Source: an uncultured Chloroflexia bacterium | Lineage (GTDB): Bacteria > Chloroflexota > Ktedonobacteria > Ktedonobacterales > JADMIN01 | DNA length: 64,000 nucleotides | Direction of reading: 5' to 3' | Assembly: GCA_963712005.1 (NCBI GenBank) | Contig: CAVQGK010000018.1 | Coordinates: 105,503 to 169,502, forward strand | Shown here: positions 14,796-47,100 of the stretch, piece by piece | Layout: each line of letters begins with the position of its first letter | Numbering within the stretch: the stretch's first letter is position 1 | Translations under genes and position numbers: made by a program | The notes under the pieces: model-generated | The model's input: the letters and a program-made list of their open reading frames with translations, nothing else | Told to the model about the DNA's origin: nothing | Database searches by the model: none

Positions 14796-14911
14796 GGGAA
14801 ACAAATGGGCTGAATGTATACTTATACTTGTGAGAAGCGGAGAAGCCAGGCGACTTCGGCGAGGAAGGTCTCTATAGGCCGAATTACCATTAGATTGCGA
14901 GATGAAGAGCT

Positions 14912-15298
14912 ATGCCCCGCAAACCCTATGGACCCAGACGTGGCAACCTCAATAGCGTTCCCAAATATTCCATCGCCGTGGCCTCCGATCTCTCTGGCGT
15001 TCCCCAGCAGCAACTGCGACGGATGGAGGAAAGCGGTCTAATTACACCCCAGCGCACGGACGGAAAAACGCGCCGCTATTCGGATGACGATATGACGCGG
15101 ATTGCCGAGGTTGGCGACCTGGCAAACGATGGGATCAACGCGGCAGGAATCCTCTATATTCGCAAGCTGCGCGAAGAGATGGAAGCCTTGCGCGCGGAGA
15201 ATGAAGCGCTACGCCAGCAACTTGCCGCCTTGCAGGATGCGTTACAGACCGCATTGAATCAAGAGAATGAACCAGCGACAGCGGCCAGCAACGAGTAA
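14912..15298 (+). CDS. hspR: MerR-family heat-shock regulator (HspR-like)
   Basis: YSIAVASDLSGVPQQQLRRMEESGLITPQRTDGKTRRYSDDDM is a MerR HTH. It has a C-terminal coiled coil and lies next to hsp20. Confidence 0.7.
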   Translation: MPRKPYGPRRGNLNSVPKYSIAVASDLSGVPQQQLRRMEESGLITPQRTDGKTRRYSDDDMTRIAEVGDLANDGINAAGILYIRKLREEMEALRAENEALRQQLAALQDALQTALNQENEPATAASNE

Positions 15299-15421
15299 GT
15301 GGCTCGTGAGCGAGTCGTGAGTGTCTCGGGTAAGCGTGAGCATGCTATGATACGCTGGACTGCGCGACGAGTGGACGCGCGCGAAAATCGTCTGACGACA
15401 TCAACATCAATGGAGATACCT

Positions 15422-17050: not shown

Positions 17051-17958
17051 CGCTCAGTTACAGCACCATCTGCGAGCGACTGCGGGCGCACGCGAAATAC
17101 ACCCCTGAAGCTGATTTTGGTGAGGGTCGTTTAGAATACCCACCTGCCTCTGAGCTATCGGTCCAGGTGTGTGAAGTGAAACTGGGATTCAAGTTACCGC
17201 CAATGCTACGTGAAATCTATAAGACCGTTGGCAACGGCGGTAACTTTTGGCCAGGATACGATTTTGCCACCATAGATGACCTCGTTGAGCAACATGACGG
17301 CTATCTTCGTTACAGTGTATCCTCACGCGATCAAAGCCGCCTGTTCGATGATGCGACCGTCGAGGCATTACGCGCCCATCCCGGCGCATATGCGTGTCCC
17401 GAACATCTACCGGATGGCTTTCTACGACTTGTGCATACCGGCTGCAATGTCTGGACCAACCTGGAAGGTTCTACGGGGCGCCTTTATCTCAATGATGAGG
17501 TTCCCGAGGATGCAACAGGCTACAGCTTTTGCGCAGATTCCCTTGAGGAATGGCTGGAACGCAGTTTGTCGGTTCTATCGTCCCGGAGCAACGAGGGCCG
17601 CTACCAGCCGCATTACCCATTAACCACTGAACTAGCCAACGGTAGTGGAGAAGGCGAAACGCAAACCGAGAAGCAAGAGGCCGACGATGGGATGACGATG
17701 CCACATCATCACCAGTACAGAGATGGGATGGCTGATTTTCGTAATCAACTGCTCACGGGGCTGGAAAAGGCGCGGATGGAAATCACCCGGCAGATTTACG
17801 GAGTAGATGCCATGCAACGTAGCATTACGGAGAGTAATTGGCCAACTTCTTCTAAGCATGATTGGTTGTTCGATCTGAGTTTGACGATGCGTGAACTGGC
17901 AGAGTCTGAAGCTCAGCTTGACCACTCGATAGCGGCGCCCTGGCTGTTCAGGTCGTGA
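17047..17958 (+). CDS. SMI1/KNR4 (SUKH-1) family protein
   Basis: KLGFKLPPMLREIYKTVGNGGNFWPGYDF is the SMI1/KNR4 signature. Its ATG overlaps the upstream stop (gccATGAcg). The gene looks less GC-rich than its neighbours. Confidence 0.65.
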   Translation: MTLSYSTICERLRAHAKYTPEADFGEGRLEYPPASELSVQVCEVKLGFKLPPMLREIYKTVGNGGNFWPGYDFATIDDLVEQHDGYLRYSVSSRDQSRLFDDATVEALRAHPGAYACPEHLPDGFLRLVHTGCNVWTNLEGSTGRLYLNDEVPEDATGYSFCADSLEEWLERSLSVLSSRSNEGRYQPHYPLTTELANGSGEGETQTEKQEADDGMTMPHHHQYRDGMADFRNQLLTGLEKARMEITRQIYGVDAMQRSITESNWPTSSKHDWLFDLSLTMRELAESEAQLDHSIAAPWLFRS

Positions 17959-18004
17959 CACCACAATATTCGAGCAATCACAGCGAAGTGAAAGAGTAAT
18001 TCCA

Positions 18005-19117
18005 ATGCCCATACAGACGCGCGCGGCAGTGCTGCGCAACTACGATTCGCCGCTGACTGTGGAAGAGATCGTGCTGGACGAGCCGGAGTCGGGTGAGGTG
18101 GTCGTGCGGCTGGCGGCGTGTGGCGTCTGCCACTCCGACCTGCATATGGTCAGCCCCGTCTTCAAGGAGGCGCTGCCCGCCGTGCTCGGCCACGAGGGCG
18201 CCGGTATCGTCGAGCGCGTTGGTCCGCAGGTGACTAGCGTCGCGCCCGGCGATCATGTCGTGCTTACCTGGATTCCCAGTTGCGGCCGCTGTCGCTACTG
18301 CGCCACCGGACGGCCCGCGCTCTGCAACAACCGCCAAGGCGTCGAGCGTAGCGGCGGCGCGATACGACGACGGCTGCATGATACCGGGGGCGAGGGCATT
18401 CACCAGCTGCTCGATGCGGGCGCGTTCGCCGAACATGTGCTGGTGCGCGAGGAGGGCGTCATCCCAATAGCCGCCGATATTCCCCTGGAGGTCGCCTCGC
18501 TGATTGGCTGTGGCGTGCTGACGGGCCTTGGGGCGGTCACTCGTACGGCACGCGTGGAGCCGGGCAGCGTCGTCGCCGTCATCGGCGCGGGCGGAGTCGG
18601 CCTCAACGTCATCCAGGGGGCGGCATTGGTCGGCGCGGCGCGCATTATCGCGGTGGATATGCGTCCGGCGGCGCTTGAGATGGCCCGCCAATTCGGCGCG
18701 ACAGATACCGTAGACGCCAGCGACCCGACGAACAGCAATCCAGCCAAGGCGCTGCGCCAGATGACCGGCGGCGGGGTGGACTATAGCTTCGAGGTGGTCG
18801 GCAGGCCAGAGACCGTCGCCCAGGCGTGGGAGTGTCTCGCGCCCGGTGGGACAGCCGTCGCGGTGGGGCTGACGCCGCAGAACGCAACCGTTCCGCTGCG
18901 CGCCGACTTCCTGAGCGAGAAGACGCTCAAGGGCTGCATCTTCGGCTCCTCGATCCCACGGGTTGACGTGCCGCGCGCGCTCAGCCTCTATCGCAGTGGC
19001 CGCCTCAAACTAGATGAACTGGTGGCGCAGCGCTACCCGCTCGACGCGGTCAACGACGCGCTCGACGCACTCCGTGCGGGGACAAGCGGACGCGGCGTGC
19101 TGGTATTTGGGGGGTAG
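18005..19117 (+). CDS. Zn-dependent alcohol dehydrogenase (MDR superfamily)
   Basis: GVCHSDLH catalytic Zn motif, CGRCRYCATGRPALC structural Zn motif, and the GAGGVGLNVIQGA Rossmann motif. Confidence 0.9.
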   Translation: MPIQTRAAVLRNYDSPLTVEEIVLDEPESGEVVVRLAACGVCHSDLHMVSPVFKEALPAVLGHEGAGIVERVGPQVTSVAPGDHVVLTWIPSCGRCRYCATGRPALCNNRQGVERSGGAIRRRLHDTGGEGIHQLLDAGAFAEHVLVREEGVIPIAADIPLEVASLIGCGVLTGLGAVTRTARVEPGSVVAVIGAGGVGLNVIQGAALVGAARIIAVDMRPAALEMARQFGATDTVDASDPTNSNPAKALRQMTGGGVDYSFEVVGRPETVAQAWECLAPGGTAVAVGLTPQNATVPLRADFLSEKTLKGCIFGSSIPRVDVPRALSLYRSGRLKLDELVAQRYPLDAVNDALDALRAGTSGRGVLVFGG

Positions 19118-30269: not shown

Positions 30270-30454
30270 CCCTGGTCACGGCAATGTGTGCGAGGCGTCG
30301 CCGGGAGGAAGCACGAAGGAGTCTGAGAAGCAAATGCGCTTTTTCCGCCGACGCTTCATGGAATGTCCTCCCGACGCGCTGCTGGAGCTTATCGAGGATA
30401 AACACGTGCACTTGGGGAATCCTCCCGCATGCCAGTGTGTCTTCGCACGATCGG

Positions 30455-31639
30455 CTATCGATCGGTGAGCCAGATAAAGAACATGGCAGCCAGCGCCGAG
30501 AGAAGGAAATACCCTGCCAGCGCTTCAACTGACTCGATCACGCCAGTCAATGGCCCGCAGGGCGTTGGGCCAGTGCCTAACGAAGTGAGTGTGGTGACAG
30601 AGACATAGAGCGACTCGCCGAAGTGCCGTATGGTAGAGGGAGAACAGGCGCCAAGCACGGAGTCGTCGGCACGATAGGCGCCAGCGAATGCGGTGATCGT
30701 CCCCGCCAGAGTTCCCAGCACGCGGCGGGGTTTGAAGCCGAATCCACAGGTAATCATGAACAGCCACAGGACGACCACCACGAGTAGCGAGCCAACGAAC
30801 AGAAGCAACCCCCATGGCAGTCTACAGAACGTGCTGATCACCCACAGAATACGGTTCGATGATTTTGGCCTCCACAGTGTAGTGGGCAGCTCGGCACACC
30901 GCTCACGGAGAATCGCTCTATAGCGGAGGTAGCGGAACTCGCGGCTGACGATGCGTCGGAAACGGCTCCATCCCTCTTCAGCGGTATCGGCAGCGCCAAA
31001 TATCTGGCTCCATTGGTCGAAGATGTCGGCGTCAGAAGCCGCTTTCCATCCACGAGGGAGATATCTGTGAACACGCCATGTATGCAATTGCTTATCGCAT
31101 TGACCGATAGCCTCGCGAAACTTCTCCAGGGTGGTTTGCGAATTTGGAAGATAAAACCTGTCACCGAGTTCAGGTTCACGACGTTGCTGAAACGCCGTTT
31201 CATTATAGTTCGCACGCTCGGTACAGAGGCGTGCGAGTAACATGAGCCGCATTGCCAGAACGACCTGGCTTGCGAGAATGCGACGGTTGGCGCGCATGAA
31301 TGGCTTGCGTCCCCGCGGCTGTTGGTCAAGCTCCATCTGGATGCGAGATGCTACGATGCCAATATCGCTCGTCAATCGCTGCCAGTTGTCAACAATGCCC
31401 CCTTCGCGATAGCGCTCGTCGAGGTAAAAGGTCGTGTCCTGCTTCTGGTTCGAGTAAAGAATCGCTGAGCGAGCCGCCTCTACCTGCACAACGTAGAACT
31501 CAAGTATTTCCGCGAAATCACTTGTGGATCGCGCGTTAGTGAGGTGTATTTGCTCGTAGTCAGTATGCCAGAAACTGGATGCGATCCACTCGTCGCGAAG
31601 GTCCCGAACAAACATTTCACTGGGCGTGTGTGTGTCCAT
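30455..31639 (-). CDS. Two-TM pore-loop ion-channel-like protein with unassigned ~260-aa N-domain
   Basis: The C-terminus has TM - SLYVSVTTLTSLGTGPTP (P-loop-like) - TM. The juxtamembrane RFRRIVSREFRYLRYRAILRER resembles the pentapeptide-channel gene at 45570. RBS ggagagggtgga. Confidence 0.65.
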   Translation of the reverse strand: MDTHTPSEMFVRDLRDEWIASSFWHTDYEQIHLTNARSTSDFAEILEFYVVQVEAARSAILYSNQKQDTTFYLDERYREGGIVDNWQRLTSDIGIVASRIQMELDQQPRGRKPFMRANRRILASQVVLAMRLMLLARLCTERANYNETAFQQRREPELGDRFYLPNSQTTLEKFREAIGQCDKQLHTWRVHRYLPRGWKAASDADIFDQWSQIFGAADTAEEGWSRFRRIVSREFRYLRYRAILRERCAELPTTLWRPKSSNRILWVISTFCRLPWGLLLFVGSLLVVVVLWLFMITCGFGFKPRRVLGTLAGTITAFAGAYRADDSVLGACSPSTIRHFGESLYVSVTTLTSLGTGPTPCGPLTGVIESVEALAGYFLLSALAAMFFIWLTDR

Positions 31640-31736
31640 GTTCAGCTATCCACCCTCTCCGTTGAGAAGCAGATGTATGCTCACACTCTTTATGCAAACT
31701 ATTCTCGAACTGCCGCCTGCGCTTTTACGATGTCAT

Positions 31737-32150
31737 TCACAACCCCTCAATGAATCGCTTGATCGCAACGCTCTCTTCGTGCGCGCCCTTCGATCGCTCG
31801 TACGTTTTGACATGCCCGGCGATTCCACTATCCAGGTTATTGAGAATACTGGTGCTTTGACTCAACACTAGCACTTGTATGCTCGCCAGCAGATTTTCAC
31901 TGCGCAACCAGTCGAGAAAGGCGTTCGTCCCCTTGCTATAGTGAAACTGCTCGCTTCCGGGTGAGATATCGAGCACTAAGTCCACGATGGCATAGCGAAA
32001 TTCAGAAGCATGTCCTCGAACTGTGGCAATGGCATCCTTCGTGGTATGGACAACATCGATCACCGCATCACGATCCGCTGTCTGCACCGCATTGGCCATA
32101 GCTTTGGCATTTTGTTTCGAGTTATCCAGGACGAGAACCCTATGTGACAT
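31737..32150 (-). CDS. Stand-alone receiver (REC)-like protein
   Basis: 137 aa with VLVLDNS, AIVDLVLD, VLVLSQS and GHVKTY at the expected receiver positions, and no output domain. RBS aagagg. Confidence 0.55.
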   Translation of the reverse strand: MSHRVLVLDNSKQNAKAMANAVQTADRDAVIDVVHTTKDAIATVRGHASEFRYAIVDLVLDISPGSEQFHYSKGTNAFLDWLRSENLLASIQVLVLSQSTSILNNLDSGIAGHVKTYERSKGAHEESVAIKRFIEGL

Positions 32151-32181
32151 CGAAGTACCTCTTGACTCAACGACTGACGAG

Positions 32182-35100
32182 CTATCTGGACACGGGCGGT
32201 CTATGCGGATTGTGCTTTACCGGTAGGTCAATGTAGAACACATTGGCGCCGCCTCTGCGTTTATAACCGGCCTGTCCCCCATGGGCAGACTCGACGATCC
32301 GGCGGACATGATCTAGTCCAATCCCCACTCCCATGCCGTTATCCACTGATCGTGCCTGGGTAAAGTGTCGCTCGAACATGGTTTGGCGCACATCCCGTGT
32401 AATAGGCGCCCCCCTGTTCTCAACTTCAACGCGGCCCCGACCCCGTCCTGTCATAGTCACCCTCACTGCAATCGTTGTATAGCGCTCCGCATGCTTGATG
32501 GCATTGTGCAGCAGCGCAAAAATGGCGACGGTGATGAGGTCACTAGAACACTCCACGACAACATCACGGTCAGACGTCTGGAAACTGATGGTGCGCTCGG
32601 TATCGCTGGCGAGAAACTCGGTACTCGCGACCAACCGTGTCAACAGTTCGCCAAGATTGACGGGCACACTCCGAATTTCTCGCCCACGCGTTTCATATTC
32701 GGCCAGTTCCTGGATGCAGTAGATAAAGGTTCGGAGTAACGCGAATGCGCTCGTCAACGACGAAAAGCTCTTGCTGTAGTCTGCCTGGCGCGCCTTGAGT
32801 AGAATGTCACGAATGCCGCCGTCCTCTAACTCCATGAGTATGGCGTCAACCTGGCTGGCAATCGAAGGTGGCCCATGCGAGAAATCCTCGATGAATTTCA
32901 ACTTCTCGTTATACATGCCACCGAGCCGGATAGATGTGACCATGATCTGCGCCAGAATCTCAAGGATATTGATATCGCGCCCGCTAAATGCCGCTTTGCT
33001 CCTGCTTTCTACGTTCAACACCCCCATAACGCGCTGGGGATCGCCTGGAGCGACGTCTGGATTCAGCAGGGGCACAGCCAACTCAGATTTTGTGTATCTG
33101 AAGGTTCTGGTAAAGATTGGCGCAAACGCGGGATCGTCGACATCGAGAACAACCAGTGGCGCCTGGGACTCCAGAACCCTGTTGACGATTCCCGGTTTGA
33201 TCTGCAAGGTTTCGTCGTGGGGCATTGGCGTGGGCTTCCCCTCCACGCCGATAAAAGAGCAATCTGGCTGGAGATTCCCGCGATTGTCCACGAACCAGAG
33301 GCTGGCATATCCGTCGGTCTGTTCCGTCAGATCAAGCGTCAATCTCATGATGTCATCGCGAATCTCGGGGTGAATTCGCTCTTTGATCTCGGTGAGGCTT
33401 CCCGTCATGACTCGATCAATGAGCTTGAGGATTGTACGGAGTTTCCTGCGATACAGGTAAAGATTGGCGGCGGAGATAATACTTGCCGCCTGCGATGCAT
33501 TGATCTCAACACGTTTGATCTGTGCTGGCGAATACATCCGGCGAACATCACTTTCCAGACAGATGACGCCCGTGATGCGATCACCACCAGGAATAGGGAC
33601 TACTAGCGCAGAGCGCATGGCGGCGCCAAGCATCGGCGCCTCCGCGACAATCTGCTCAAGCTCAATGCCATCCGAACTAAGCTCAGCCACGCGTTCCATC
33701 GGTGCGACGGATGTTGCGAAGTACTGGCGCACCTCGCCAGCGCTAAACGCCCGTGCCGCGATATTCGATGGCGCGCGATCAACTGGGATCTGAATGACGC
33801 TGTCGCTACTCGACGATGACGCTTTGGAAAACGTGGCCAACTCAACCAGTTCAACCGATTCCTTTTGCGGGACTTCAGCGGAACCGTCTGGGAGACGCAC
33901 TGCGGCAAGGATGACACCCTTCGATGAGTTTGTATATTCTGTCGCGACCTTCACCAGCTTTTGCAACAGTTCCCTGCGGCGGTGGCGAATCAGACTCAGA
34001 TTCTGGTTGTCCTGGTCTTGCCCTGACCTATCCAACCTCAACATGCTGGCGACGTCGTCGTTGATTTCGCGCAGTTGCTGCAGATTCGTCTGCGCCAGCC
34101 ACCCGCCTCGTATGACTTTGGCATGTTCGAGCGTGCGCGCCGCACAGCGGGCAAGCTCCTCAACCCGTTGCTGATCGCGATCGGTGAAGGCGTTCGGTTC
34201 AGTTGACACCATATCGATAACGCCAAGTACCTGCTTGCCCAGGAGGAGCGGAACCACCAGCTCTGACTGGATCGTTGGATCCTGCTCGAAGTAGATATCC
34301 CGGTACTTCTTGTCATGGACATCCGCTATGCACTTGGATTTACGATCCCGGCGCGCCCAGCCAGTGAAACCCTTCCCTTCCGGCCAGGACCAGACCTGAA
34401 TCATCTCTGGGGCGTAGTTGTAGGCTGCGTCCATAGTGATCGTAAATACGCCGTCACCGCAGAACGCGATAGCCGCTCTGGCGTCGGGCTGCCCGATCAC
34501 CTGTATGATTCGTCGGAGCAGTAACTTATAGAGCGCTGAGAGGCGTCGCGAGTCAAGCACGTTGGGGAACTGGGTCTCGAATCTGGCGCCAAAAGCGCTG
34601 AACGAGGTGGCGGACGCCCATGCTGATGTTGTGATATCCCGTAGACATGCCTCGGCGCTCGCGCGACATTCCGCGACGATCGGATCATCTTCAGTGAGGG
34701 TATTGGGTTGCGAGGTCTCGACGCTAACGACGCCAATGGGGCGACCTCGTCCATCCCGAATCGGTAAGGCCAGCGCACATGTTGACCCCATAATATTGGT
34801 CATGGGGTGACCTGGCTGATGGTTCTTGATATAGTATGTGTTATCTTTCACAATCGCCTGCCACGCCGCGACGGTGTTTCGCGCGTAATATCCCGGAAGC
34901 ACGTGAACGGTGGGGCTGGCAGCCCCCAGTGTGACGAGCGCGTCACTGTCACTGGTGAGTCCCAGGATTTCAACGACGATTCTCGTCGTTTTTTGCTCCT
35001 GGCTTTTGCCCCTGTCGGTGTCCTTCCCCTTTTTTCTCGCGTCTTCGCGGGTTCTCGCCCGCTGCTTCTCCCGCTCCTCCGCTAACGCCTTCGCGCACTT

Positions 35101-35664
35101 TTCCGCGAGCCGTTGAAATTCATTGAAAATCCCTGCCGAAGTGGCTGGAGTCCGGTCTGTGGCGTTGGCCAGCGTTATCTGGAAACGCGATTGCTCCCAG
35201 AGGACCGCCTGAGTGATCTGGTGCGCGAGAATGTTTATCCAGGGTAGGACGCTGGTCGTGAATTGCCGTGGCTTCTCGCTCCCGACGAAGATGGCTCCAG
35301 GACAGATATTGCCGTAGAGAAGAGGAATCACCAGCACAGATTGAAGGTGATGCGATTGATGTAACTGCAAATTGTCGAGCCGGAGGACGTTATCGGTATC
35401 TATCGCGCGAACGAGCAGATGATCAACCTCTGAAACCATGGATTCCGTCCAGGGTCCACCAAAGTAATTCTCCGGCCCGGGATGATTCGGAGCATCTTGC
35501 AGCCAGATTCTCACCAGCGTTTCAGGGTCACCAGTCAGGTGCGCGATTCCCCGCGCCAGATCATGCATTATCTCTTGAAACGGGACGCTTTCCATCATTC
35601 CTTTCGTGTGCTCGGACACTATACGTTCCAGCCGGAATTGGCGCGTGCCGCTCTGCATGGCCAT
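32182..35664 (-). CDS. Soluble multi-GAF sensor histidine kinase (1160 aa)
   Basis: No TM segment and several GAF-like blocks (e.g. SVLVIPLLYGNICPGAIFVGS; ALALPIRDGRGRPIGVVSVE; ELVVPLLLGKQVLGVIDMVS; ALVVPIPGGDRITGVICLES; ELAVPLL...VMGVLNVES). The C-terminal kinase region reads FSHGPPSIAS, LLHNAIKHA, GMGVGIGL. Confidence 0.85.
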   Translation of the reverse strand: MAMQSGTRQFRLERIVSEHTKGMMESVPFQEIMHDLARGIAHLTGDPETLVRIWLQDAPNHPGPENYFGGPWTESMVSEVDHLLVRAIDTDNVLRLDNLQLHQSHHLQSVLVIPLLYGNICPGAIFVGSEKPRQFTTSVLPWINILAHQITQAVLWEQSRFQITLANATDRTPATSAGIFNEFQRLAEKCAKALAEEREKQRARTREDARKKGKDTDRGKSQEQKTTRIVVEILGLTSDSDALVTLGAASPTVHVLPGYYARNTVAAWQAIVKDNTYYIKNHQPGHPMTNIMGSTCALALPIRDGRGRPIGVVSVETSQPNTLTEDDPIVAECRASAEACLRDITTSAWASATSFSAFGARFETQFPNVLDSRRLSALYKLLLRRIIQVIGQPDARAAIAFCGDGVFTITMDAAYNYAPEMIQVWSWPEGKGFTGWARRDRKSKCIADVHDKKYRDIYFEQDPTIQSELVVPLLLGKQVLGVIDMVSTEPNAFTDRDQQRVEELARCAARTLEHAKVIRGGWLAQTNLQQLREINDDVASMLRLDRSGQDQDNQNLSLIRHRRRELLQKLVKVATEYTNSSKGVILAAVRLPDGSAEVPQKESVELVELATFSKASSSSSDSVIQIPVDRAPSNIAARAFSAGEVRQYFATSVAPMERVAELSSDGIELEQIVAEAPMLGAAMRSALVVPIPGGDRITGVICLESDVRRMYSPAQIKRVEINASQAASIISAANLYLYRRKLRTILKLIDRVMTGSLTEIKERIHPEIRDDIMRLTLDLTEQTDGYASLWFVDNRGNLQPDCSFIGVEGKPTPMPHDETLQIKPGIVNRVLESQAPLVVLDVDDPAFAPIFTRTFRYTKSELAVPLLNPDVAPGDPQRVMGVLNVESRSKAAFSGRDINILEILAQIMVTSIRLGGMYNEKLKFIEDFSHGPPSIASQVDAILMELEDGGIRDILLKARQADYSKSFSSLTSAFALLRTFIYCIQELAEYETRGREIRSVPVNLGELLTRLVASTEFLASDTERTISFQTSDRDVVVECSSDLITVAIFALLHNAIKHAERYTTIAVRVTMTGRGRGRVEVENRGAPITRDVRQTMFERHFTQARSVDNGMGVGIGLDHVRRIVESAHGGQAGYKRRGGANVFYIDLPVKHNPHRPPVSR

Positions 35665-35837
35665 CTATTCCACCTTCGGTATACTTCTTCATGTAACAGT
35701 ACGTCAGTATATCTAGGGTTTGTGCGTCGCAGAGAATCGAGACGCCGGGAAAGTGGTCATTCAAACCAAGCGTTGCGCCCCGGCGCCGTTATCTTAGCAC
35801 AACATATGCTGTTTGCAACAGGGAACGCTTGCGAACT

Positions 35838-35886
35838 CTGAAGACGACAAATCGTCCCGCTCTCTAGTAGTGGAGCAGGGACGATT
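35838..35886 (-). terminator. Rho-independent-type terminator after gcvPB
   Basis: Minus strand: aatcgtccctgctc-cactactaga-gagcgggacgatt (13-bp stem, one bulge), followed by tgtcgtctt. Confidence 0.55.
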
Positions 35887-35916
35887 GAGATCGTGCAAGG
35901 ATGGATATAGCGGTCG

Positions 35917-39214: not shown

Positions 39215-39634
39215 CTAGTGGCCCGCCGTCTTGAGGAACTCGGTGTAGGCGGCGGCGTCCAACAGCTTATCAAGCTCGGCGGGATCGGAGAGCCGCACGC
39301 GCAGCATCCAGCCACCACCGTATGGCTCGCTGTTCACCAGTTCCGGCGTGGTCTGGAGGGCGCTGTTAACGGCGACGAGCGCTCCACTCACTGGGATGAA
39401 TAGCTCCGAGGTCGCCTTGACCGATTCGATATCGCCAAAGTGCTCATTCGCCTTGAAGTCGCGGCTACCCGCGTCATCCCAGGGAAGATCGAGGTAGACG
39501 ACATCGCCCAGCTCATCCTGAGCGTAGTCGGAGATGCCAATGGTCGCCTCGTCACCGTCGACGTGCACCCACTCGTGGGTCTGAGCAAAAAACATCGGTG
39601 TCGAAGACCCAGTGGAATTCGTACCTTGGCTCAT
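39215..39634 (-). CDS. gcvH: Glycine cleavage system H protein
   Basis: THEWVHVDGDEATIGISDYAQDELGDVVYLDLP...ESVKATSELFIPVSG (lipoyl-lysine motif ESVKA). RBS gggaga lies 8 nt before the ATG. Confidence 0.9.
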   Translation of the reverse strand: MSQGTNSTGSSTPMFFAQTHEWVHVDGDEATIGISDYAQDELGDVVYLDLPWDDAGSRDFKANEHFGDIESVKATSELFIPVSGALVAVNSALQTTPELVNSEPYGGGWMLRVRLSDPAELDKLLDAAAYTEFLKTAGH

Positions 39635-41222
39635 GTGTTTTCTCCCATAGATAGGCCCGTACTCCGAAGCGGTACAAAATCATCCGCTTCTCTTTCATCG
39701 ACGCGCCCTCCAGGTTGCGCACAGCCTGGGGAGCCGCTTCCTGGAATGACTTTATCACAGCCGCTTGTTCTTTGCGTTCGGCTTCCGTCGCAGTCAGTTC
39801 CTCCAACGTCCCGGTGAGAGTAACATACTGCTCGTGCGCTTCCTCGGCAAGCTGGACAAACCGCTCTCGCATATCGTCTGACTTGGCGCTTCCGACTGCC
39901 GCAAGGTAGCTGTCTTCCTGCTCCTTCGCCTGTTTGCGCGCAAGCTCGACCGCAGTGCGCTGGCTGGAGCCTTCCTCCTGCGCCTGGGCGACGTTGGCGA
40001 GGTAGACCTCGTACTGCGCTTGCAACCGCTCCGGGTGAGTAAGCTGCTCGATGAACCACGCCCAGCAGGCGTCATCCAGGGTAGACGACTTAATGAGGTT
40101 GACGCCGGGATAGCTACATGCGCCCTGCCTGTCCCCTGTGCCCGTGCGGACACGGTTGGCGCAGCGGTAGAAGTGGTAGCCACGTTTCTTCTCGTAGATC
40201 GTCGTGAGGCTGCCCTCACAGTAGCCGCAGCAGCCAAGCGGGTGGTGGAGCAACACGTCGCCCGCATGAGAGAGCCGCCGCGAAGACAACTCCTTGTTCT
40301 CAGTCAGGCGTTGCTGGGCGGTGTTGTACGCTTCCTCGCTCACCAGCGCAGGGCAGACATCCGGGCTGTACTCAAACCGATTGACATCGTCTGGCGCACG
40401 CTTGACCCGCCGCATCACGACACGCACCTCGCCGGTAACGGGGTGGATGACTGTCTTGGGAATGCGCGTCGTCTCCATGCCTACCATGTGACCGGTGTAC
40501 GACTGATCGCGGAGGATTTTGCGGATGCTGGTTGGTCCCCAGTGTTCGGAGCGGCGACTGGTGATTCTCCAGCCCTGAGACTGCTGATAGCGAGAAGGGG
40601 ACGGGATGCCGTCTCTGGTGAGCGCAAGACTGATTTGCCGCATGGTGTTCCCGGCCACATACTCCGCAAAGATACGGCGGACAATCGGCGTAGAGTTGGG
40701 GTCAGGGCGAAACTTCTCCTTGCGGTCGTCCGCGAACATATAGCCGTACTTGGGGCAGTTCATCGCAGGCAGCTTGCCGGAATGAACACGCGCCTTCTTG
40801 CCGCCTGCTGTTCTTGCCCTCACGTTGTTCAGTTCTGTCTCAGCTGCGAAGATGATGCCGTTCCGCACGAACTCACCAACTGCGCCCTCCGGGAGTTCTT
40901 CGGTTGCCGAGAAGACCTCGACACCGACCTCACGGAACTGGAAGATTGCTACTGTACACTGCACCTGAATGCGTGAGAAGCGATCAAACCGTCCAACGCA
41001 AACGATGTCGAACTTACCTTTACGGGCCTCACCCAGCATCTCCTGGAAGACCGGACGATTCAGTGTATAGGACTTGCCGCCTGGGTCGGAATACTTGGCC
41101 ACAATTACGTGTCCTTGCCGTTCCGCCCAGGCTTCAATGTCGTTATGCTGATTCTCGATGCTGTAGTTCTTGTCCTCCTCGCCCGGACTCGACCGGCGAA
41201 GATAAGCTGCGACTCGCGCCAT
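39552..41222 (-). CDS. Large serine recombinase (integrase-type)
   Basis: 556 aa: N-terminal resolvase domain (AAYLRRSSPGEED...GRFDRFSR), a recombinase domain, a zinc ribbon (CCGYCEGSL...YRCANR) and a coiled coil. The 3' end overlaps gcvH by 83 nt. Confidence 0.9.
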   Translation of the reverse strand: MARVAAYLRRSSPGEEDKNYSIENQHNDIEAWAERQGHVIVAKYSDPGGKSYTLNRPVFQEMLGEARKGKFDIVCVGRFDRFSRIQVQCTVAIFQFREVGVEVFSATEELPEGAVGEFVRNGIIFAAETELNNVRARTAGGKKARVHSGKLPAMNCPKYGYMFADDRKEKFRPDPNSTPIVRRIFAEYVAGNTMRQISLALTRDGIPSPSRYQQSQGWRITSRRSEHWGPTSIRKILRDQSYTGHMVGMETTRIPKTVIHPVTGEVRVVMRRVKRAPDDVNRFEYSPDVCPALVSEEAYNTAQQRLTENKELSSRRLSHAGDVLLHHPLGCCGYCEGSLTTIYEKKRGYHFYRCANRVRTGTGDRQGACSYPGVNLIKSSTLDDACWAWFIEQLTHPERLQAQYEVYLANVAQAQEEGSSQRTAVELARKQAKEQEDSYLAAVGSAKSDDMRERFVQLAEEAHEQYVTLTGTLEELTATEAERKEQAAVIKSFQEAAPQAVRNLEGASMKEKRMILYRFGVRAYLWEKTHEPRYEFHWVFDTDVFCSDPRVGARRR

Positions 41223-41855: not shown

Positions 41856-42992
41856 TTACTTTGCGCGCTTATAGAACGGCAGCGCGACGATGACCGCGGG
41901 AACTGCCTTACCGCGAATCTCGATGGCAATCTCGGAGCCGGGGACGGCGTGCTCCGGTGGGACGTAGCCCATGCCAATCGCTTTGCCAATGGTAGGGCCG
42001 ACGGTGCCGCTGGTCAGCTCACCAATGGCCGCGCCCTCGCGCAGAATGGGATATCCGGCGCGCGGAACGCCCCCGCCGCGCAGCTCGATCCCCACACGCT
42101 TGCGCGGCAGCCCCTGCTCCTTCTGCGCCAGCAGCGCATCGCGCCCGATGAAGTCGTGGCCCTTCTCCAACTTGACCGACCAGCCAAGGCCAGCCTCCAG
42201 CGGCGTGATCTGCTCAGTCAGTTCGTGGCCATAGAGACAGAAGCCCGCCTCCAGCCGGAGCGTATCACGCGCGCCCAGCCCGGCCGGGAGCAGCCCCGCT
42301 GAGCCGCCCGCCGCCAGCAGCGCACGCCAGAGCGCCACCACATCGCCACTGGCGCAGCACAACTCGAAGCCATCCTCGCCGGTATAGCCGGTGCGCAAGA
42401 TCAGACAGGATATGCCCGCGACGGTCCCTTCGGCAAAGTGGTAGTAGACGACGGTGTTGAGGTCGGTGTTGGTCAGGGAGCTCAGGATGTCGCTGGCGCG
42501 CGGGCCTTGCAGCGCGAGAAGCCCCGTCTCATCAGAGATGTTGGTCAGCGTGACATCGGCGCGTCCTGCCGCCTGCCGCGTGAACCAGTCCCAGTCCTTC
42601 TCCGTCGTATCCGCGTTGACCACGGCCATATAGCGCGTGTCGCCGAAGCGGTAGATCGTGAGATCGTCCAGCGTGCCGCCCTGCTCATTGCAAATCTGGG
42701 TGTAGAGCGCCTGCCCGTCGGTCAGCCGGGCGACGTTATTGGGGACGAGACCCTGCAAGAAATCGAGCGCCCCCGGACCCTCAACGCGAAACTCGCCCAT
42801 ATGCGAGACATCGAACATGCCCGCGCGCTCGCGGACGGCGCGGTGTTCTTCGAGAATGCCGCTATACTGAACGGGCATTTCCCAGCCGCTGAACTCGACG
42901 AGACGCGCGCCCAACGCGCGATGCTCCTCGTAGAGCGGGGTACGCTTGAGCCGCGGCGTCGCGGCATCGGTCGAAGATGTATCTGCGCTCAT
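41856..42992 (-). CDS. gcvT: Glycine cleavage system aminomethyltransferase T
   Basis: 378 aa: LKRTPLYEEHRALGARLVEFSGWEMPVQYSGILEEHRAVRERAGMFDVSHMGEF. Confidence 0.95.
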   Translation of the reverse strand: MSADTSSTDAATPRLKRTPLYEEHRALGARLVEFSGWEMPVQYSGILEEHRAVRERAGMFDVSHMGEFRVEGPGALDFLQGLVPNNVARLTDGQALYTQICNEQGGTLDDLTIYRFGDTRYMAVVNADTTEKDWDWFTRQAAGRADVTLTNISDETGLLALQGPRASDILSSLTNTDLNTVVYYHFAEGTVAGISCLILRTGYTGEDGFELCCASGDVVALWRALLAAGGSAGLLPAGLGARDTLRLEAGFCLYGHELTEQITPLEAGLGWSVKLEKGHDFIGRDALLAQKEQGLPRKRVGIELRGGGVPRAGYPILREGAAIGELTSGTVGPTIGKAIGMGYVPPEHAVPGSEIAIEIRGKAVPAVIVALPFYKRAK

Positions 42993-43150: not shown

Positions 43151-44743
43151 TCAATAGATGAAGCTGACGCCGGAACGGACATAGGCGAAGCGGTAGCTCA
43201 CACGCCCCCAACCACCGCCATTCCAGTAAAAGTTCATCTCCGAGACGAGGAACCAGCCACCAGGGTAGACCTTCTCGACATGGGCGACGTGGCCCGCGCC
43301 ACCCGCGCCCTCGACACCCGGCTGGAAGACAACCGTTGCTCCGGCGCGTGGCGTATGCCCGACCCGATAGCCGCGCGACGCCGCGCCCGCCGCCCAGTAG
43401 CGCGCGTTGCCCATGCGGCGCAGATTCTCATCCTGCCGCTTATTTTGCGCCCACCAGGTGCACTGGCCAAACGCCCACCAGTAGAAGCCATTCGCCGGGC
43501 GGTTCATCTTGAAGGATGGATGGCCGGGGACGTACATATAGGCCCACCTGGGCGGCCAGGGACGGACCGGCGCGGGCGAGATGCCGGTATTCGAGGAGGG
43601 CGACGAGTTGCCAGACGGCGCGCCGCCGCTACCCGAAGAATTCCCCGCGGGCAGTCCGGCGCTCCCCGGCGCTTTGACGCCAGGGCCAGCGCCGCCGCCA
43701 AGACCGAGCACCGCGCCCGCCTGCGTATCCCACGGCCCGCTTGGATCGCCGGTCGCGTTGTTGCTGGCCGTCTGCGCCGCCAGCAGCCCAAAGGGGAGTG
43801 TTGCTGAGGCGAGGGGATTGGTCTCCGCGAGCACGCCGACCACCAGGGCCAGCGTCATCAGGCAGGCGACGAATCCCGCGACCAGGCTGCGTCGTCCGTG
43901 CCGTCGCGGCTGGAGCCAGATCGGCGTCGGCGCGAGCTTACCCGCAGGCACGACGGTGACAGGCATACGCGGCATCGTATCGGCATCCATGACCGCCATA
44001 TCAGTCGGCAGGTAGACGGTGGGCGCCTCATCGGCGGCGACCCGCGCATCCTCGATGACAGCCTCCAGCGCGTTCAAGATCATCGTCTGGCGCGTCACCA
44101 GCGTGGTATCTTCCGGGCGCACTGGCCGCGCGGTGGATGGCCGCCGTCGGCGATTCGGTCCGCCGTAAACGCCTGACATACCGGAGATACCGGAGTTAGC
44201 CGGGCCATCGTCGGGGCGCGCAGGCATGATGATCGTGTCTGGTGGCAGCGTCGTACCCATCCAGGGCGGGGACGAGCCAGGTGGTGTGCCTGGTTTCTTC
44301 GTGGGCGCGTAGGGCGCTTCAGGCGCCGCCGACGCGGCACGCAGGCCGCCATTTGTCTGGCGCGGTCTGCTGATGGGCGTCTCGGTGTCGCTGGTGAGGC
44401 GGGGTATGTTGGTGAGCCATGGCGCGGTGGAGCGTCGCGGCTGGCTCACTGGCCCATGCTCGTCGGGACGCACCCGTGGGATGCGGTTGGTCGGCTCATG
44501 CGTCGCCCGCATGCGTTGTCTTGCGGTTGGTGTATCCGCTCCCCATCCCGTCTCCCACTCTGTCCACTGCGTATCCGGTCTCGCTCCGGCAGATGGCTTG
44601 CGTCCGCGCTTGTGCTGGCCTGCCACGGCATCCCTCCCTGCTTCCCAATCGCATCCACCCTGTACAGGGGAGTATGGCCAGGAGCGGCTGAGTTTCGCGA
44701 CAAGCGAGCGCGAAATTCGGGCGGTCAGGGAGGCGTTAGACAA
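43151..44743 (-). CDS. CHAP-domain protein with long disordered N-region and one TM helix
   Basis: The C-terminus has GQCTWWAQNK (Cys) ... GHVAHVEKV (His) ... SEMNFYWNGGGWGRVSYRFAYVRSGVSFIY, after a Pro/Arg-rich N-half and a TM helix (LVAGFVACLMTLALVVGVLA). The start is uncertain. Confidence 0.75.
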   Translation of the reverse strand: MSNASLTARISRSLVAKLSRSWPYSPVQGGCDWEAGRDAVAGQHKRGRKPSAGARPDTQWTEWETGWGADTPTARQRMRATHEPTNRIPRVRPDEHGPVSQPRRSTAPWLTNIPRLTSDTETPISRPRQTNGGLRAASAAPEAPYAPTKKPGTPPGSSPPWMGTTLPPDTIIMPARPDDGPANSGISGMSGVYGGPNRRRRPSTARPVRPEDTTLVTRQTMILNALEAVIEDARVAADEAPTVYLPTDMAVMDADTMPRMPVTVVPAGKLAPTPIWLQPRRHGRRSLVAGFVACLMTLALVVGVLAETNPLASATLPFGLLAAQTASNNATGDPSGPWDTQAGAVLGLGGGAGPGVKAPGSAGLPAGNSSGSGGAPSGNSSPSSNTGISPAPVRPWPPRWAYMYVPGHPSFKMNRPANGFYWWAFGQCTWWAQNKRQDENLRRMGNARYWAAGAASRGYRVGHTPRAGATVVFQPGVEGAGGAGHVAHVEKVYPGGWFLVSEMNFYWNGGGWGRVSYRFAYVRSGVSFIY

Positions 44744-44816: not shown

Positions 44817-45560
44817 TTAATCCTTCAGAAACCGTTCGACCCAGGCTACCATGCGCTGCCGAGCCGTTTCCCACAACTCTGGCGAAAGGCTATGACCTGC
44901 ACCGGGATACTCCAGGTAGCATAGGCGCTCCGGGGCGGTGGCGTATAACGGTGTGAGTTGCTCGTGGAAGGTGCGGATATAGCGGGCTGGCACGGCCTCA
45001 TCCTTCTCCGCTGCCTGGGAGAACAGCGCGACCGGGAAGAAGCGCTCAACATGGCGGTGCGGACTCTCAGGCAAGGGCAGCTCCCATTCGGGAGAGCCAA
45101 GGATAGGGGTCGCTACGCACAGGCGAGGTTCATCAACAATCGCCGCATAGGTGATCTCGCCACCCATGGAGACTCCTCCTATGCCCAGGCGCCTGGGCCG
45201 CGCCCATCCACGAGCGTACAGTTCGTCTATGATCAGGGGCACTTCACCTGCCGTTTGGCGCACAATCGCAAGGTAGTCGGCCTCGGTGGCTTCTGGTCCC
45301 CCTGCCCAGCGCTCATCATTGAACATCTCAGCGAAATGGGGGAAGCGGCGCTGCCCATGGCCAACAGCGTCCAGGCCGATCACGAGAAACCCGGCCTGTG
45401 CGAGGCTCACGAGATGAGCCTCGATCTTCTCTTTGCTTCCGCCAAAGCCATGATAGAACAACATCGTGCCCTGCTCGGCACAGGGCTGGATCGCATCCTG
45501 GAAGAAGAGCAATGCGGGAACCGAGGCAATGGTGGTCACTTCTTGCGTGAGGGGCATCAT
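44817..45560 (-). CDS. Alpha/beta hydrolase (dienelactone hydrolase / S9-like)
   Basis: Nucleophile elbow GGVSMGG, then HGFGGSKE, and a C-terminal GAGHS. Confidence 0.8.
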   Translation of the reverse strand: MMPLTQEVTTIASVPALLFFQDAIQPCAEQGTMLFYHGFGGSKEKIEAHLVSLAQAGFLVIGLDAVGHGQRRFPHFAEMFNDERWAGGPEATEADYLAIVRQTAGEVPLIIDELYARGWARPRRLGIGGVSMGGEITYAAIVDEPRLCVATPILGSPEWELPLPESPHRHVERFFPVALFSQAAEKDEAVPARYIRTFHEQLTPLYATAPERLCYLEYPGAGHSLSPELWETARQRMVAWVERFLKD

Positions 45561-45569: not shown

Positions 45570-47100
45570 TTAGTTCCCCGTGACCCGGCGGGTGAATGCC
45601 GCAATGAAGATACCTTCAATCAACAGGCCAAAGAACGCCTCGACCGCCGTAAGCGTCGCCAGCGTATCGGTCATCGTCAGCCCCGGTGGCTGCACACCGC
45701 GCCCATGAAACGAGGTGATGCTCAGCACGAAGACATCACGGATGGCATCGAATGAGACGACGCGCCCTGCCGCCAGAAACATCGCCCCAGCAAACGCGCT
45801 CACCACCAGCAGATACGTCAGCAACAGCCGCCCGAAGTAGTCGCCGTAGCCCGCGAATGTGCCCAACAGCCACGAGAACAGCCAGCGCCCGAAGAATGCC
45901 GGAGCGGTATAGAAGCGCCTCGACAGCACGTTGGCGAATATCTGCCAGAAATAAGACTTGCGCTCCATCAATTCGGCACGGTAGTGGAAGCGTGTAGCAT
46001 CGGCGCCTAATCCCTGGTTGCGCAACGCAACCGAGAGCGACCGGTAGGCCCGCGCTGCCTTATGGAATGCCTCCACCTTCCAACTGGTACTTCTTGCCTT
46101 CCTAGCATCGCGCTCATCACCTAGGCGCTTTAGCGTTGCCCATGAAACGACCGTGAGATTAGTATTGTCGAACGTCACTTGGTCTAGGCTCACTTCAACT
46201 AGATTAGCATCGTCAAGCCGCGAAGTCTTATCAAAGGATGAGGCACGCAGGTCCGCTTGTAGTAACTGCGCCTTACGCAGATCGGCACCTTCCAAACGGG
46301 CGCCATAGAGGTTGGTATCTTGCAACTGCGAGGTAAGTAAATTGGCATTTTGTAACTGTGCACCATAGAGATTGGCATTCTGCAGCCGAGCACCACTTAG
46401 GTTGGCTTGCTGTAACAGCGTCTCACGTAGATCAGCGTGTACCAATATTGCCACACCTAAGTCGGCGCCGTCCAATTGGGCTCCACTGAGAAAGGCTTGC
46501 TGCAGGTTCGCGCCGTGCAGTATGGCTCCCTGCAAGTTAGCCTCTTCCAATACAGCATGCTGTACCTGCGCTCCACCTAAGTATGGCGCCTTGCAGTTGC
46601 GCTCCGCGCAAGTAGGTGCCCTGGAGTTGCGCCCAATGCATCATGGCACGTTGCAATTGGACTCTATGCAGTTTCGCGTGTTGTAATTTTGCTTCGGTTA
46701 AGTTGGCTCTCTCCAAGTGAAGCTCCGAGAGATCAGGTGAATTGAATGGGTGCTTGAGCGCTGCTGCTGTCTCGCCAAGATTACCGTCCGGATCATTAAG
46801 CGCCAGCGCTGCCAGCCAGAAGACGTCTGCACCGGTCAATTTCACATCCTTGAAGACACTCTGATTGACGTTGCGGTCTAGCTGCGCCACCCATATTTTC
46901 TGCCGCTCAAACATCTCCTTCAGTTCGACCAGCCGCTCGGGGCTGATATCGTCTCCCCAGGCTATCCCCGTTGACTCCGTTGTCGTACCAGCTGGCTGCT
47001 GGCTTTCGGGCGTCTCGCTCATGCACATATGCTCCTGCTGGCTCATCAGCTGCTCGGTTGTGAAGACATTATACAGGAGAGAAGATGGTTTGTAAGCCAC
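45570..47100 (-). pseudogene. Pentapeptide-repeat protein fused to a two-TM pore-loop channel module, one frameshift near 46578
   Basis: ORFs 46537..47100 and 45570..46550 join as ...YLRGAQLQGAIL|GGAQVQHAVLEEANLQGAILHGANL... if one nt is removed, keeping the 5-residue register. The C-terminus reads VLSITSFHGRGVQPPG between two TM helices. Confidence 0.75.

Follow-up and report, generated by a model that had tools for sequence, protein, structure and literature searches.

A low-GC three-gene block encoding a multi-GAF histidine kinase, a divergent single-domain receiver and a predicted pore-loop channel protein

To our knowledge, nearly all characterised two-component systems deliver their output to transcription, to receiver-fused enzyme domains or to the flagellar motor. 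The stretch of DNA analysed here (64,000 nucleotides of a soil Ktedonobacterales genome, hereafter the window) contains a block of three genes for a soluble histidine kinase, a receiver without output domain and a membrane protein terminating in a predicted pore-loop module, which raises the question of where a phosphorelay composed of these proteins would direct its signal. The features of the block are compiled in Table 1.

Table 1 Features of the three-gene block (positions are those of the window)
Feature	Position	Strand	Basis
Low-GC island with the three-gene module	30300..35900	.	GC, GC3; sharp edges near 35.9 kb and 30.3–30.45 kb
Gene 1, predicted soluble multi-GAF histidine kinase, 1160 aa	32182..35664	-	Pfam: five GAF/GAF_2 stretches and HATPase_c; no TM segment
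Kinase sensor region, residues ~1–915, five tandem GAF domains	32920..35664	-	Pfam GAF_2 (E=5.8e-42), five stretches; alignment A3
Kinase DHp and catalytic ATP-binding domains, residues ~916–1160	32185..32919	-	Profile A7 versus PDB
His930 codon, predicted phospho-accepting His, H-box 'DFSHG'	32875..32877	-	Invariance and alignment to solved kinases
Gene 2, predicted divergent CheY-like single-domain receiver, 137 aa, no output domain	31737..32150	-	AF2 fold, Foldseek, hhalign
Asp57 codon, predicted phospho-accepting Asp of the receiver	31980..31982	-	Invariant in A2 and A4; aligned to CheY D57
Gene 3, predicted membrane protein with helical N-domain and C-terminal pore-loop channel module, 394 aa	30455..31639	-	AF2, profiles
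All-alpha N-terminal domain, residues 1 to ~260	30860..31639	-	AF2; conserved stretch 194–229
Predicted membrane module: hydrophobic helix 270–304, outer helix 304–329, pore helix 337–353, filter, inner helix 365–392	30458..30859	-	Profile, Foldseek, hydropathy
Selectivity-filter equivalent T352-S-L-G355-T-G, in place of the K+ signature T-x-G-Y-G	30569..30586	-	Alignment to KirBac3.1 TIGYG

Layout and base composition of the block

The three genes are co-directional and separated by spacers of 31 nt (kinase/receiver) and 97 nt (receiver/channel). Putative ribosome-binding sites precede the two downstream genes, 'aagagg' 8 nt upstream of the ATG of the receiver gene and 'ggagagggtgga' about 10 nt upstream of that of the channel gene. 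Coordinates, strand, spacers and the purine-rich character of these sites agree exactly with a preliminary description of the locus, which had also judged the block by eye to be much less GC-rich than its flanks. Calculation of GC content and codon usage revealed this drop to be real: GC amounts to 0.553 for the block versus 0.620 for the whole window, placing the block in the bottom 0.85 % among all windows of 5.2 kb, and GC3 of the kinase, receiver and channel genes (0.64, 0.58 and 0.63, respectively) contrasts with that of the flanking genes gcvPB (0.86), gcvPA (0.83) and the PQQ gene (0.79). The base composition of the block is foreign.

The island borders the 3' end of gcvPB on one side and, on the other, that of a convergently oriented PQQ beta-propeller gene. 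Neither flanking direct repeats nor att-like sites were found at its edges, and an Rfam search of the window yielded no match. No DNA-binding response regulator is encoded in the block, as had been described, or adjoining it; the closest HTH protein is of the ArsR type and contains no receiver domain.

Predicted properties of the three proteins

Judged by its catalytic residues, the product of gene 1 is a predicted HisKA-type sensor kinase. Its hydropathy (19-residue window) reaches a maximum of 1.86, which falls in GAF strands and the N-box helix, in agreement with the hydrophobic segment reported earlier as missing, and the five GAF stretches and the HATPase_c domain (E=5.8e-15, above threshold) recognized by Pfam correspond to the about five GAF-like blocks and the ordinary ATPase region of the preliminary description. 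Neither a cNMP-type NKFDE motif nor a bilin-type Cys-His motif was seen by eye in the GAF domains. Comparison of kinase profile A7 with the PDB retrieved HisKA-type kinases (E=3e-22) across the DHp and CA domains and placed His930 (in 'FIEDFSHG') opposite the phospho-accepting His of kinases with known structure ('lqdvsHgle' versus 'FLRHLSHELKTPL'). The H-box is indeed atypical, as had been noted, in that the Pfam HisKA model does not match the kinase and the residue following the His is Gly, Ala or Asp instead of the usual Glu; His930 nonetheless does not vary in alignment A3, and all six A7 sequences spanning the H-box have it. Conserved ATPase boxes comprise the N-box (N1054), the G1 box 'VENRGAPI', the stretch 'MFERHF' and the G2 box 'GVGIGL', i.e., N, G1, F and G2 boxes of a GHKL ATPase are all present. 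The change from Asp to Asn in the G1 box might point to an inactive kinase; this reading was dismissed, since the best PDB match, the solved kinase 7zp0, has a G1 box of the same form ('VENPGTPI').

Gene 2 is confidently assigned, on the basis of its modelled fold, as coding for a divergent receiver with CheY fold. This class assignment is based on fold and profile-profile comparison, and the Pfam model Response_reg (PF00072) matched neither the receiver of the window nor three homologues nor a receiver-like fragment at a further locus (L021) at E<=1. The AF2 model (pLDDT 90.7, pTM 0.87) has a (beta-alpha)5 fold, all of the top 50 Foldseek matches in the PDB are receiver domains (E ~1e-5, TM 0.6–0.7), and hhalign against canonical receivers gave a probability of 81 % (E=1.3e-5). 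RcpA and CheY were matched in the PDB profile search, with RcpA being best by sequence. Residues D9, D57 and S97 align with D12, D57 and T87 of CheY, respectively, D57 and S97 being invariant in alignments A2 and A4. The acidic pocket of the window protein reads D9-N10, with Asn at the second position, and that of its relatives DD or ED. Of the receiver residues listed in the preliminary description, the phosphoacceptor Asp57 and Ser97 stand, together with the fold; the Lys position has to be revised, as no fixed Lys follows beta5 and its place is taken by a basic residue at the end of this strand, either Arg (R119, without exception in A4) or, in distant members, Lys or Lys-Arg.

The product of gene 3 matched no model in Pfam, NCBIfam, PADLOC or PHROG, and its family comprises about 170 cluster representatives. 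Its N-terminal domain is predicted by AF2 to consist of helices only, with pLDDT values of 80–94 across most of residues 31–250 and dips to 63–66 at residues ~61–70 and 151–170. A conserved stretch (LP.GW..SDA..F..W..F......E.GW) extends from residue 194 to 229, and the N-domain of the distant member P0034 is homologous (hhalign 99.7 %). Fold matches were found neither in the PDB nor among viral structures, and profile and structure searches of the ~260 aa, which had previously been regarded as unassignable, retrieved no enzyme or domain. A receiver fold within gene 3, of the kind present in DtcC of the Detocs system (see below), was rejected, as the AF2 model is all-helical and the receiver HMM matches no protein of the channel family. 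On these models, gene 2 would encode the only phospho-acceptor receiver of the operon, and the channel protein would possess no receiver domain of its own.

The C-terminal part of gene 3 is predicted, by fold and sequence, to form a K-channel-type pore. The pore profile matched KirBac3.1 in the PDB (E=3e-4), and the same protein was retrieved by Foldseek with a probability of 1.0 and an rmsd of 2.9 Å over 98 columns (26 % identity), as were NaK, KcsA and GsuK. Gene 3 itself scores below the threshold of Pfam Ion_trans_2; at its weak-scoring end, the profile of the channel family reaches a protein carrying this domain and merges with it. The TM/P-loop/TM end recognized in the preliminary description is hence retained as a pore module and supplemented by a very hydrophobic extra helix (270–304) preceding the outer pore helix, a region of low AF2 confidence.

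The filter (T-S-L-G-T-G) lacks the T-x-G-Y/F-G signature of K+ channels. Gene 3 was not filed as a K+-selective channel because the GYG signature is missing, and for the same reason non-selective cation conduction is probable. In the core subfamily, Tyr-Gly was lost and P..C361-G362 acquired, with Ser, Thr or Gly at the position of the Tyr and a variable residue following it. Across 152 representatives, T352 is found in 116, L354 in 115 and G355 in 146, and the pore-lining positions T352, G355, E372 and G376 are conserved. This strong conservation favours a functioning pore.

Conservation of the trio and proposed mechanism

Synteny, which the preliminary description had raised as a check on the trio, was found: seven further lineages (L001, L003, L004, L005-7, L015-17, L018 and L019) display neighbouring genes for kinase, receiver-family protein (135–173 aa) and channel in the same order, at sequence identities down to ~20 %. 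At an eighth locus (L021), the channel gene directly follows a gene fragment that was recognized as receiver-like by eye only (hmmsearch E=1.1); L022 is a near-identical copy. Abutting or overlapping genes occur at L018 (0 and -4 nt), L001 (-4 nt) and L004 (-20 nt). Kinase homologues are encoded upstream of all channel homologues with enough flanking sequence, and wherever upstream sequence was available, a receiver-family gene stands before the channel gene, its place being taken in the variant represented by L012 by the gene for a GAF protein. The trio recurs in unrelated metagenomes, and at least one NCBI MAG (GCA_021794755.1) carries the variant system. Two peptide-pattern scans detected no relative of the channel among 185,579 species genomes, the patterns being so narrow that distant members could escape. 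Both the receiver and the channel family are rare. Pairwise identities of the three proteins are correlated across 8 loci (Mantel r 0.67–0.84, p 2e-4 to 4e-3), most strongly for receiver and channel (r 0.84), a joint divergence that linkage alone could explain.

These observations bear on the possibility that gene 1 encodes an ordinary kinase with a distally encoded DNA-binding regulator, gene 3 then being a co-transcribed but independent membrane protein or a non-conducting anchor. Large Chloroflexota genomes commonly contain orphan kinases and single-domain receivers, the window covers 64 kb of a 666-kb contig, and the filter without K+ signature would fit a protein that does not conduct. 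However, a gene order kept in at least eight lineages with overlapping genes, the rarity of the receiver and channel families, the constant placement of the channel gene behind a receiver-family or GAF protein gene, and the conserved pore lining all speak against this assumption, which is considered very improbable.

The joint explanation that accounts best for the data, and to which an even chance is assigned, is that the block constitutes a single horizontally acquired operon coding for a complete signalling pathway with non-transcriptional output, in which the phosphorylated receiver acts on the channel. This accords with the inference of the preliminary description that the phosphorelay may gate the channel, in whose favour the checks on synteny, N-domain, base composition and nearby regulators came out. 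The cytoplasmic kinase would sense an intracellular cue via its five GAF domains, autophosphorylate at His930 and in turn phosphorylate Asp57 in the receiver of the same operon. Because the latter has no output domain, it would act in its phosphorylated form through partner binding, like CheY on FliM, the likeliest partner being the conserved helical and presumably cytoplasmic N-domain of the gene 3 protein. Binding would open or close the putatively tetrameric K-channel-type pore and, since this pore is probably non-selective for cations, the output would consist in an altered membrane potential or ion content. Domain identities, catalytic residues, fold assignments, gene order, joint divergence and foreign composition are established by the data presented here, whereas phosphotransfer, receiver-channel contact, ion conduction and its selectivity, and the physiological role are what we infer from the locus. 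Counting for the mechanism are operon structure, synteny, the correlated identities of the three proteins, the predicted competence of kinase and receiver, the position of the receiver as sole phospho-acceptor of the operon, the pore match and the lack of a nearby DNA-binding regulator. Counting against it are the H-box without the acidic residue that usually follows the His and assists autophosphorylation, the Asn in the acidic pocket of the receiver together with its missing canonical Lys and the failed Pfam model, the variant lineage L012-14, the low AF2 confidence at helix 270–304, and linkage as a sufficient cause of the correlated divergence.

In the variant lineage L012-14, the channel gene comes immediately after that of a multi-GAF protein with degenerate ATPase, and no separate receiver gene is present. 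A link between sensor and channel can therefore exist without classical phosphotransfer, and direct contact of the kinase protein with the channel may occur. Channel proteins of the P0034 variant possess an extra N-terminal alpha/beta domain of ~135 aa. Fusion of a receiver to the channel in this variant is unsupported (hhalign probability of 0.5 % versus the small-protein family and 1.5 % versus canonical receivers), and the PDB profile search with the extra domain retrieved no receivers.

The arrangement in L012-14 agrees with a different role of the receiver, namely as a phosphate sink or feedback regulator of the kinase, with the multi-GAF protein itself binding and controlling the channel protein; DtcB, a lone receiver reported to serve as a buffer, would be the precedent. 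The trio systems would then be devoid of an output-bearing phospho-acceptor, leaving an intact kinase with no signalling target. Moreover, the receiver gene adjoins, and often overlaps, the channel gene, and the identity correlation is highest for precisely this pair, and a role as sink or feedback regulator is considered rather improbable.

Relation to known systems and biological significance

The closest analogue in layout is Detocs, a defensive two-component system (DtcA/DtcB/DtcC) described as a three-gene operon for kinase, stand-alone receiver and effector (Rousset et al., bioRxiv 10.1101/2023.01.24.525353). Both systems share the order kinase, lone receiver and effector, the non-transcriptional output (predicted for the trio) and horizontal mobility, and some Detocs effectors are likewise membrane-spanning. 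They differ in the sensor, which is TPR-based in DtcA and composed of five GAF domains in the trio, and in the effector, which in DtcC carries an N-terminally fused receiver and in gene 3 an all-helical N-domain without receiver match. Since the effector of the trio itself lacks a receiver domain, the lone receiver would, unlike that of Detocs, have to transmit rather than buffer the signal. A DtcB-like stand-alone receiver is present as middle gene of the trio, the likeness to Detocs being one of layout only, and an effector of the K-channel pore type is not mentioned in the passages of the preprint that were consulted.

Detocs logic also provides the model for a reading of the trio as an anti-phage or abortive-infection module, in which the GAF kinase would sense infection, the receiver relay the signal and the pore act as suicide effector collapsing the membrane potential. 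Foreign composition and sharp island bounds agree with such a role, as do the rare and patchy distribution, with no relative in the pattern scan of species genomes, and the use of two-component logic with effectors that can be membrane-spanning, as described for Detocs. At L001, the trio adjoins a transposase, a ThsB-like TIR-TPR protein (PADLOC E=3.6e-50) and a CHAT protein; the channel homologue at L010 adjoins a PDC-S13-like Bro-N protein (E=1.7e-60); and a gene for a Phd-type antitoxin is located upstream in L018. Within the trio, PADLOC yielded no named system, its release possibly lacking Detocs models, and only a weak match between the defence candidate PDC-M43B and the ATPase domain of the kinase, and neither receiver nor channel matches a PADLOC or PHROG model. 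Furthermore, the module of the window follows the housekeeping gcv operon, the flanks of L012 and most of those of L018 are metabolic, and defence-type genes occur in only 2–3 of ~6 informative neighbourhoods. A defensive role is considered less likely than not, though more likely than the two alternatives above. It concerns the biological role of the trio and is compatible with gating of the channel as mechanism.

Other known systems resemble parts of the trio. In CheA-CheY-FliM, as proposed here, an output-less receiver in its phosphorylated form binds a membrane-associated machine; the kinase of the trio, however, is predicted to be dimeric and of the HisKA type rather than a CheA, the target would be the N-domain of the channel instead of the motor switch, and no chemotaxis genes are located near the trio. 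Phytochrome-type systems such as Cph1/Rcp1 and RcpA likewise pair a soluble GAF-containing HisKA kinase with a co-encoded lone receiver, but the kinase of the trio possesses five GAF domains, neither a PAS nor a PHY domain and, judged by eye, no bilin-type Cys-His motif, and a channel gene is the constant third member of its operon. With the prokaryotic 2TM K+ channels (KirBac3.1, MthK/GsuK and NaK), gene 3 shares outer helix, pore helix, filter and inner helix (rmsd ~3 Å), the conserved filter Thr and Gly, the inner-helix Gly and a cytoplasmic domain that presumably gates the pore. It differs from them in the filter (T-S-L-G-T-G-P..C-G versus T-x-G-Y-G-D), in the extra hydrophobic helix before the pore, and in its regulatory domain, which is N-terminal, all-helical and unrelated to the Kir, RCK or CNBD domains.

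The searchable literature yielded no account of a kinase-receiver-channel system, in line with the preliminary description, which knew of none. The recurrence of the trio suggests a hitherto undescribed pathway whose signal terminates at an ion channel instead of gene expression. Tentatively, and with a probability somewhat short of even, the trio may represent a horizontally mobile class of two-component systems, in which a phosphorylated lone receiver directly gates a non-selective P-loop cation channel and thereby converts a GAF-sensed intracellular chemical cue into a change of membrane potential within seconds, maybe serving filamentous bacteria of the soil as a switch for abortive infection; the receiver and channel clades, the latter with a docking domain of its own at the N-terminus, would then be new families missed by the domain libraries.

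The two families that escaped Pfam, NCBIfam, PADLOC and PHROGs comprise a divergent receiver clade and a pore that putatively derives from K channels and bears a new N-terminal domain. If the proposed mechanism is true, membrane excitability would join the known outputs of bacterial phosphorelays, and the trio would be a small system of three proteins whose steps (phosphotransfer, phospho-dependent docking and conductance) are each testable. Should its role be defensive, the regulated P-loop channel would be a new type of effector for two-component-based immunity and would extend Detocs-like logic to an effector without its own receiver domain.

Layout and base composition of the block

The three minus-strand ORFs were recovered exactly at the positions assigned to them in the preliminary description and are separated by the same 31- and 97-nt spacers. 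The purine-rich ribosome binding sites reported there for gene 2 (aagagg) and gene 3 (ggagagggtgga) are located 8–10 nt ahead of the start codons, and gaaggtgga precedes the start codon of gene 1. The drop in GC content, initially noted by eye, proved real and strong upon computation (0.553 for the block vs 0.620 for the window), the block representing the lowest-GC 5.2-kb stretch of the window (bottom 0.85 % of sliding windows). GC3 amounts to 0.64, 0.58 and 0.63 for genes 1, 2 and 3, respectively, as compared to 0.86 for gcvPB, 0.83 for gcvPA and 0.79 for the PQQ propeller gene. The low-GC block is sharply delimited on both sides (near 35.9 kb and 30.3–30.45 kb); a search for direct repeats flanking the block as marks of insertion detected none. 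The contig that contains the window measures 666 kb, and the gcvPB of the window shares a 90 %-identity cluster with proteins bearing names from Ktedonobacterales MAGs.

Elsewhere in the window, a lone serine recombinase gene without evident accompanying cargo genes breaks the otherwise contiguous gcvT-gcvH-gcvPA-gcvPB operon between gcvT (41856–42992) and gcvH (39215–39634), overlapping the start of the gcvH ORF by 83 nt. An Rfam scan of the window (1–64000) yielded no family at gathering score, and no glycine riboswitch was called upstream of the glycine-cleavage genes.

Features of the window and of the two-gene variant found on other contigs
Feature	Position	Strand	Remarks
Gene 1, kinase	35664->32182	-	ORF, 1160 aa
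Gene 2, divergent receiver	32150->31737	-	ORF, 137 aa
Gene 3, channel (putative)	31639->30455	-	ORF, 394 aa
Large serine recombinase	39552-41222	-	Pfam Resolvase + Recombinase; GC3 0.70
CHAP-domain protein	43151-44743		
Alpha/beta hydrolase	44817-45560		
Pentapeptide-repeat protein	45570-46550		in second low-GC patch (46-47 kb, GC 0.54)
DDE_5 transposase	48250-49509		
Two-gene variant	L012 358-5440; also L013, L014		two genes; NCBI GCA_021794755.1

Kinase, receiver and channel proteins

The roughly five GAF blocks and ordinary ATPase region proposed for gene 1 correspond to five GAF stretches and HATPase_c in Pfam, which returned no match to HisKA. As described before, a membrane segment is absent by hydropathy; three mildly hydrophobic stretches are located within two GAF domains and the N-box helix. 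Seven homologues were used to build a profile of the last 256 residues, which matched solved HisKA-type kinases in the PDB (E = 3e-22), covering both the DHp and the catalytic domain and aligning His930 (FIEDFSHG) on their phospho-accepting His. This residue is invariant in the kinase alignment A3 and was found in 6/6 sequences covering the H-box in alignment A7 of the C-terminal part. The H-box is indeed atypical in that His is followed by Gly, Ala or Asp, not Glu. Conservation extends to the N, G1, F and G2 boxes, the G1 box of the window (VENRGAPI) having a form shared with the best-matching solved kinase.

Gene 2 has no Pfam, NCBIfam or single-sequence PDB match. Its family profile, searched against the PDB, ranked RcpA and several CheY proteins highest (E = 0.01–0.3). 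The confident AlphaFold model has a (beta-alpha)5 fold (pLDDT 90.7, pTM 0.87), and its best 50 fold matches in the PDB are all receiver domains. Alignment of the family by hhalign with a profile of five canonical receivers gave a probability of 81 % (E = 1.3e-5) and paired D12, D57 and T87 of CheY with D9, D57 and S97. D57 and S97 are invariant across the family, which bears out the phosphoacceptor and S/T positions recognized earlier. The canonical Lys is not a constant feature: all sequences of the receiver-family alignment A4 have R119, and in distant members beta5 ends with Lys or Lys-Arg. Taken together, this profile, model, fold-match and residue-alignment evidence shows gene 2 to be a divergent receiver, apparently phosphorylatable and, as described before, devoid of an output domain.

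Gene 3 is not recognized by the Pfam, NCBIfam, PADLOC or PHROG libraries. Its last ~85 residues match the pore of KirBac3.1 (single sequence E = 0.009, profile E = 3e-4), on which the AlphaFold model superposes with probability 1.0 (rmsd 2.9 Å over 98 columns, 26 % identity); NaK, KcsA and GsuK superpose as well. The filter reads T-S-L-G-T-G in place of the T-x-G-Y-G of K+ channels. Among 152 cluster representatives of the family, conservation is strong at T352, L354, G355, E372 and G376. Tyr-Gly has disappeared from the core subfamily, which has acquired a P..C-G motif, and the weak-scoring end of the family grades into Pfam Ion_trans_2 proteins. The lack of the K+ signature points to a non-selective cation pore. 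While the TM/P-loop/TM end was thus confirmed as a pore module, its earlier outline lacked a further, very hydrophobic helix ahead of the pore (residues 270–304; window 30728–30826). No other helix of gene 3 is as hydrophobic, and KPRR comes after it; in distant members its equivalent is shorter and contains charged residues. Should this helix cross the membrane completely, the pore would have the opposite orientation to that of classical K+ channels (GluR0-like). The N-terminal 260 residues, unassignable at the outset, are modelled as helices only, mostly with good confidence, have their strongly conserved stretch at residues 194–229 and gave no match to PDB or viral structures.

Conservation and genomic neighbourhood of the trio

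The channel family is rare, with eight relatives in 5.8 billion clusters by word-indexed search and ~170 representatives by exhaustive profile search, and the receiver family is equally rare. The same gene order was found on every channel-homologue contig with enough upstream sequence, L012–14 harbouring a two-gene variant. Full trios (L001, L003, L004, L005-7, L015-17 and L018) comprise a multi-GAF HATPase_c kinase of ~1060–1300 aa, a receiver-family protein of 135–173 aa and the channel. The L019 trio has a shorter kinase with one weak GAF match, and L021 is partial, its receiver-like fragment upstream of the channel being recognized by eye only (hmmsearch E = 1.1). The genes adjoin directly or overlap at several loci. 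Over eight loci, the three proteins show correlated pairwise identities (Mantel r 0.80, 0.84, 0.67; p 4e-4, 2e-4, 4e-3), which fits long co-inheritance of the trio as one unit; linkage alone could yield the same.

The module copy on L022, from another metagenome, is 97.5 % identical to that of the window, slightly above the flanking PQQ gene (94.8 %), which is the neighbour in both; ~18 nt separate the convergent stop codons (4330–4346) vs ~185 nt in the window (30270–30454). At the L001 locus (6079–9264 and 9685–10909), the kinase carries N-terminal pentapeptide repeats ahead of the GAF array. The channel protein of this locus, of 302 aa, has a shorter N-terminal part, and immediately upstream of it lies a separate ORF of 59 aa, which may reflect a split or mis-called start.

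In the two-gene variant, a 1191-aa multi-GAF protein retaining the H-box His (QDFAH) and possessing a degenerate ATPase domain directly precedes a channel-family protein of 487 aa. The latter bears an additional alpha/beta domain of ~135 aa at its N-terminus, present in at least nine cluster representatives. A receiver was not detectable in this domain by hhalign against receivers or by PDB profile search. The variant cautions that the sensor protein may also contact the channel directly.

The foreign base composition and patchy distribution of the trio could also point to a mobile conflict or defence module, a less probable role that would be compatible with channel gating. On L001, an 80-kb metagenome contig, the trio adjoins a DDE transposase, a ThsB-like TIR-TPR protein (PADLOC E = 3.6e-50) and a CHAT protein (11170–18238); on L010 (1628–2497) the channel homologue adjoins a Bro-N protein matching defence candidate PDC-S13 (E = 1.7e-60), and a Phd antitoxin gene is located near the L018 trio. 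A precedent is Detocs (DtcA/DtcB/DtcC), described in a preprint as an operon of kinase, lone receiver and effector that can act against phage (bioRxiv 10.1101/2023.01.24.525353). However, other neighbourhoods are housekeeping, including the gcv operon of the window, and the sole PADLOC model match of any trio protein is a weak one of the kinase domain to candidate PDC-M43B. The trio is not Detocs itself, as it has no TPR sensor, its effector has no receiver and no named PADLOC system was matched.

Proposed signalling route

The constituents of the trio fall into known superfamilies (HisKA kinase, CheY-like receiver, P-loop channel); receiver and channel are divergent clades under library thresholds and the N-domain of gene 3 is new. 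No account of a kinase-receiver-channel operon was found in the searchable literature, in line with the preliminary description. The trio resembles CheY-type signalling in logic and, with respect to the pore fold of gene 3, KirBac or NaK. The only phospho-acceptor of the operon is a receiver without output domain, and the channel protein, with its own type of conserved, predicted cytoplasmic N-domain, is the sole candidate for the output. In the simplest and most likely model, each step of which we infer, the GAF array of the kinase would sense a cue, His930 would hand phosphate to Asp57 of the receiver, and the phospho-receiver would dock on the N-domain of gene 3 and thereby gate its pore.
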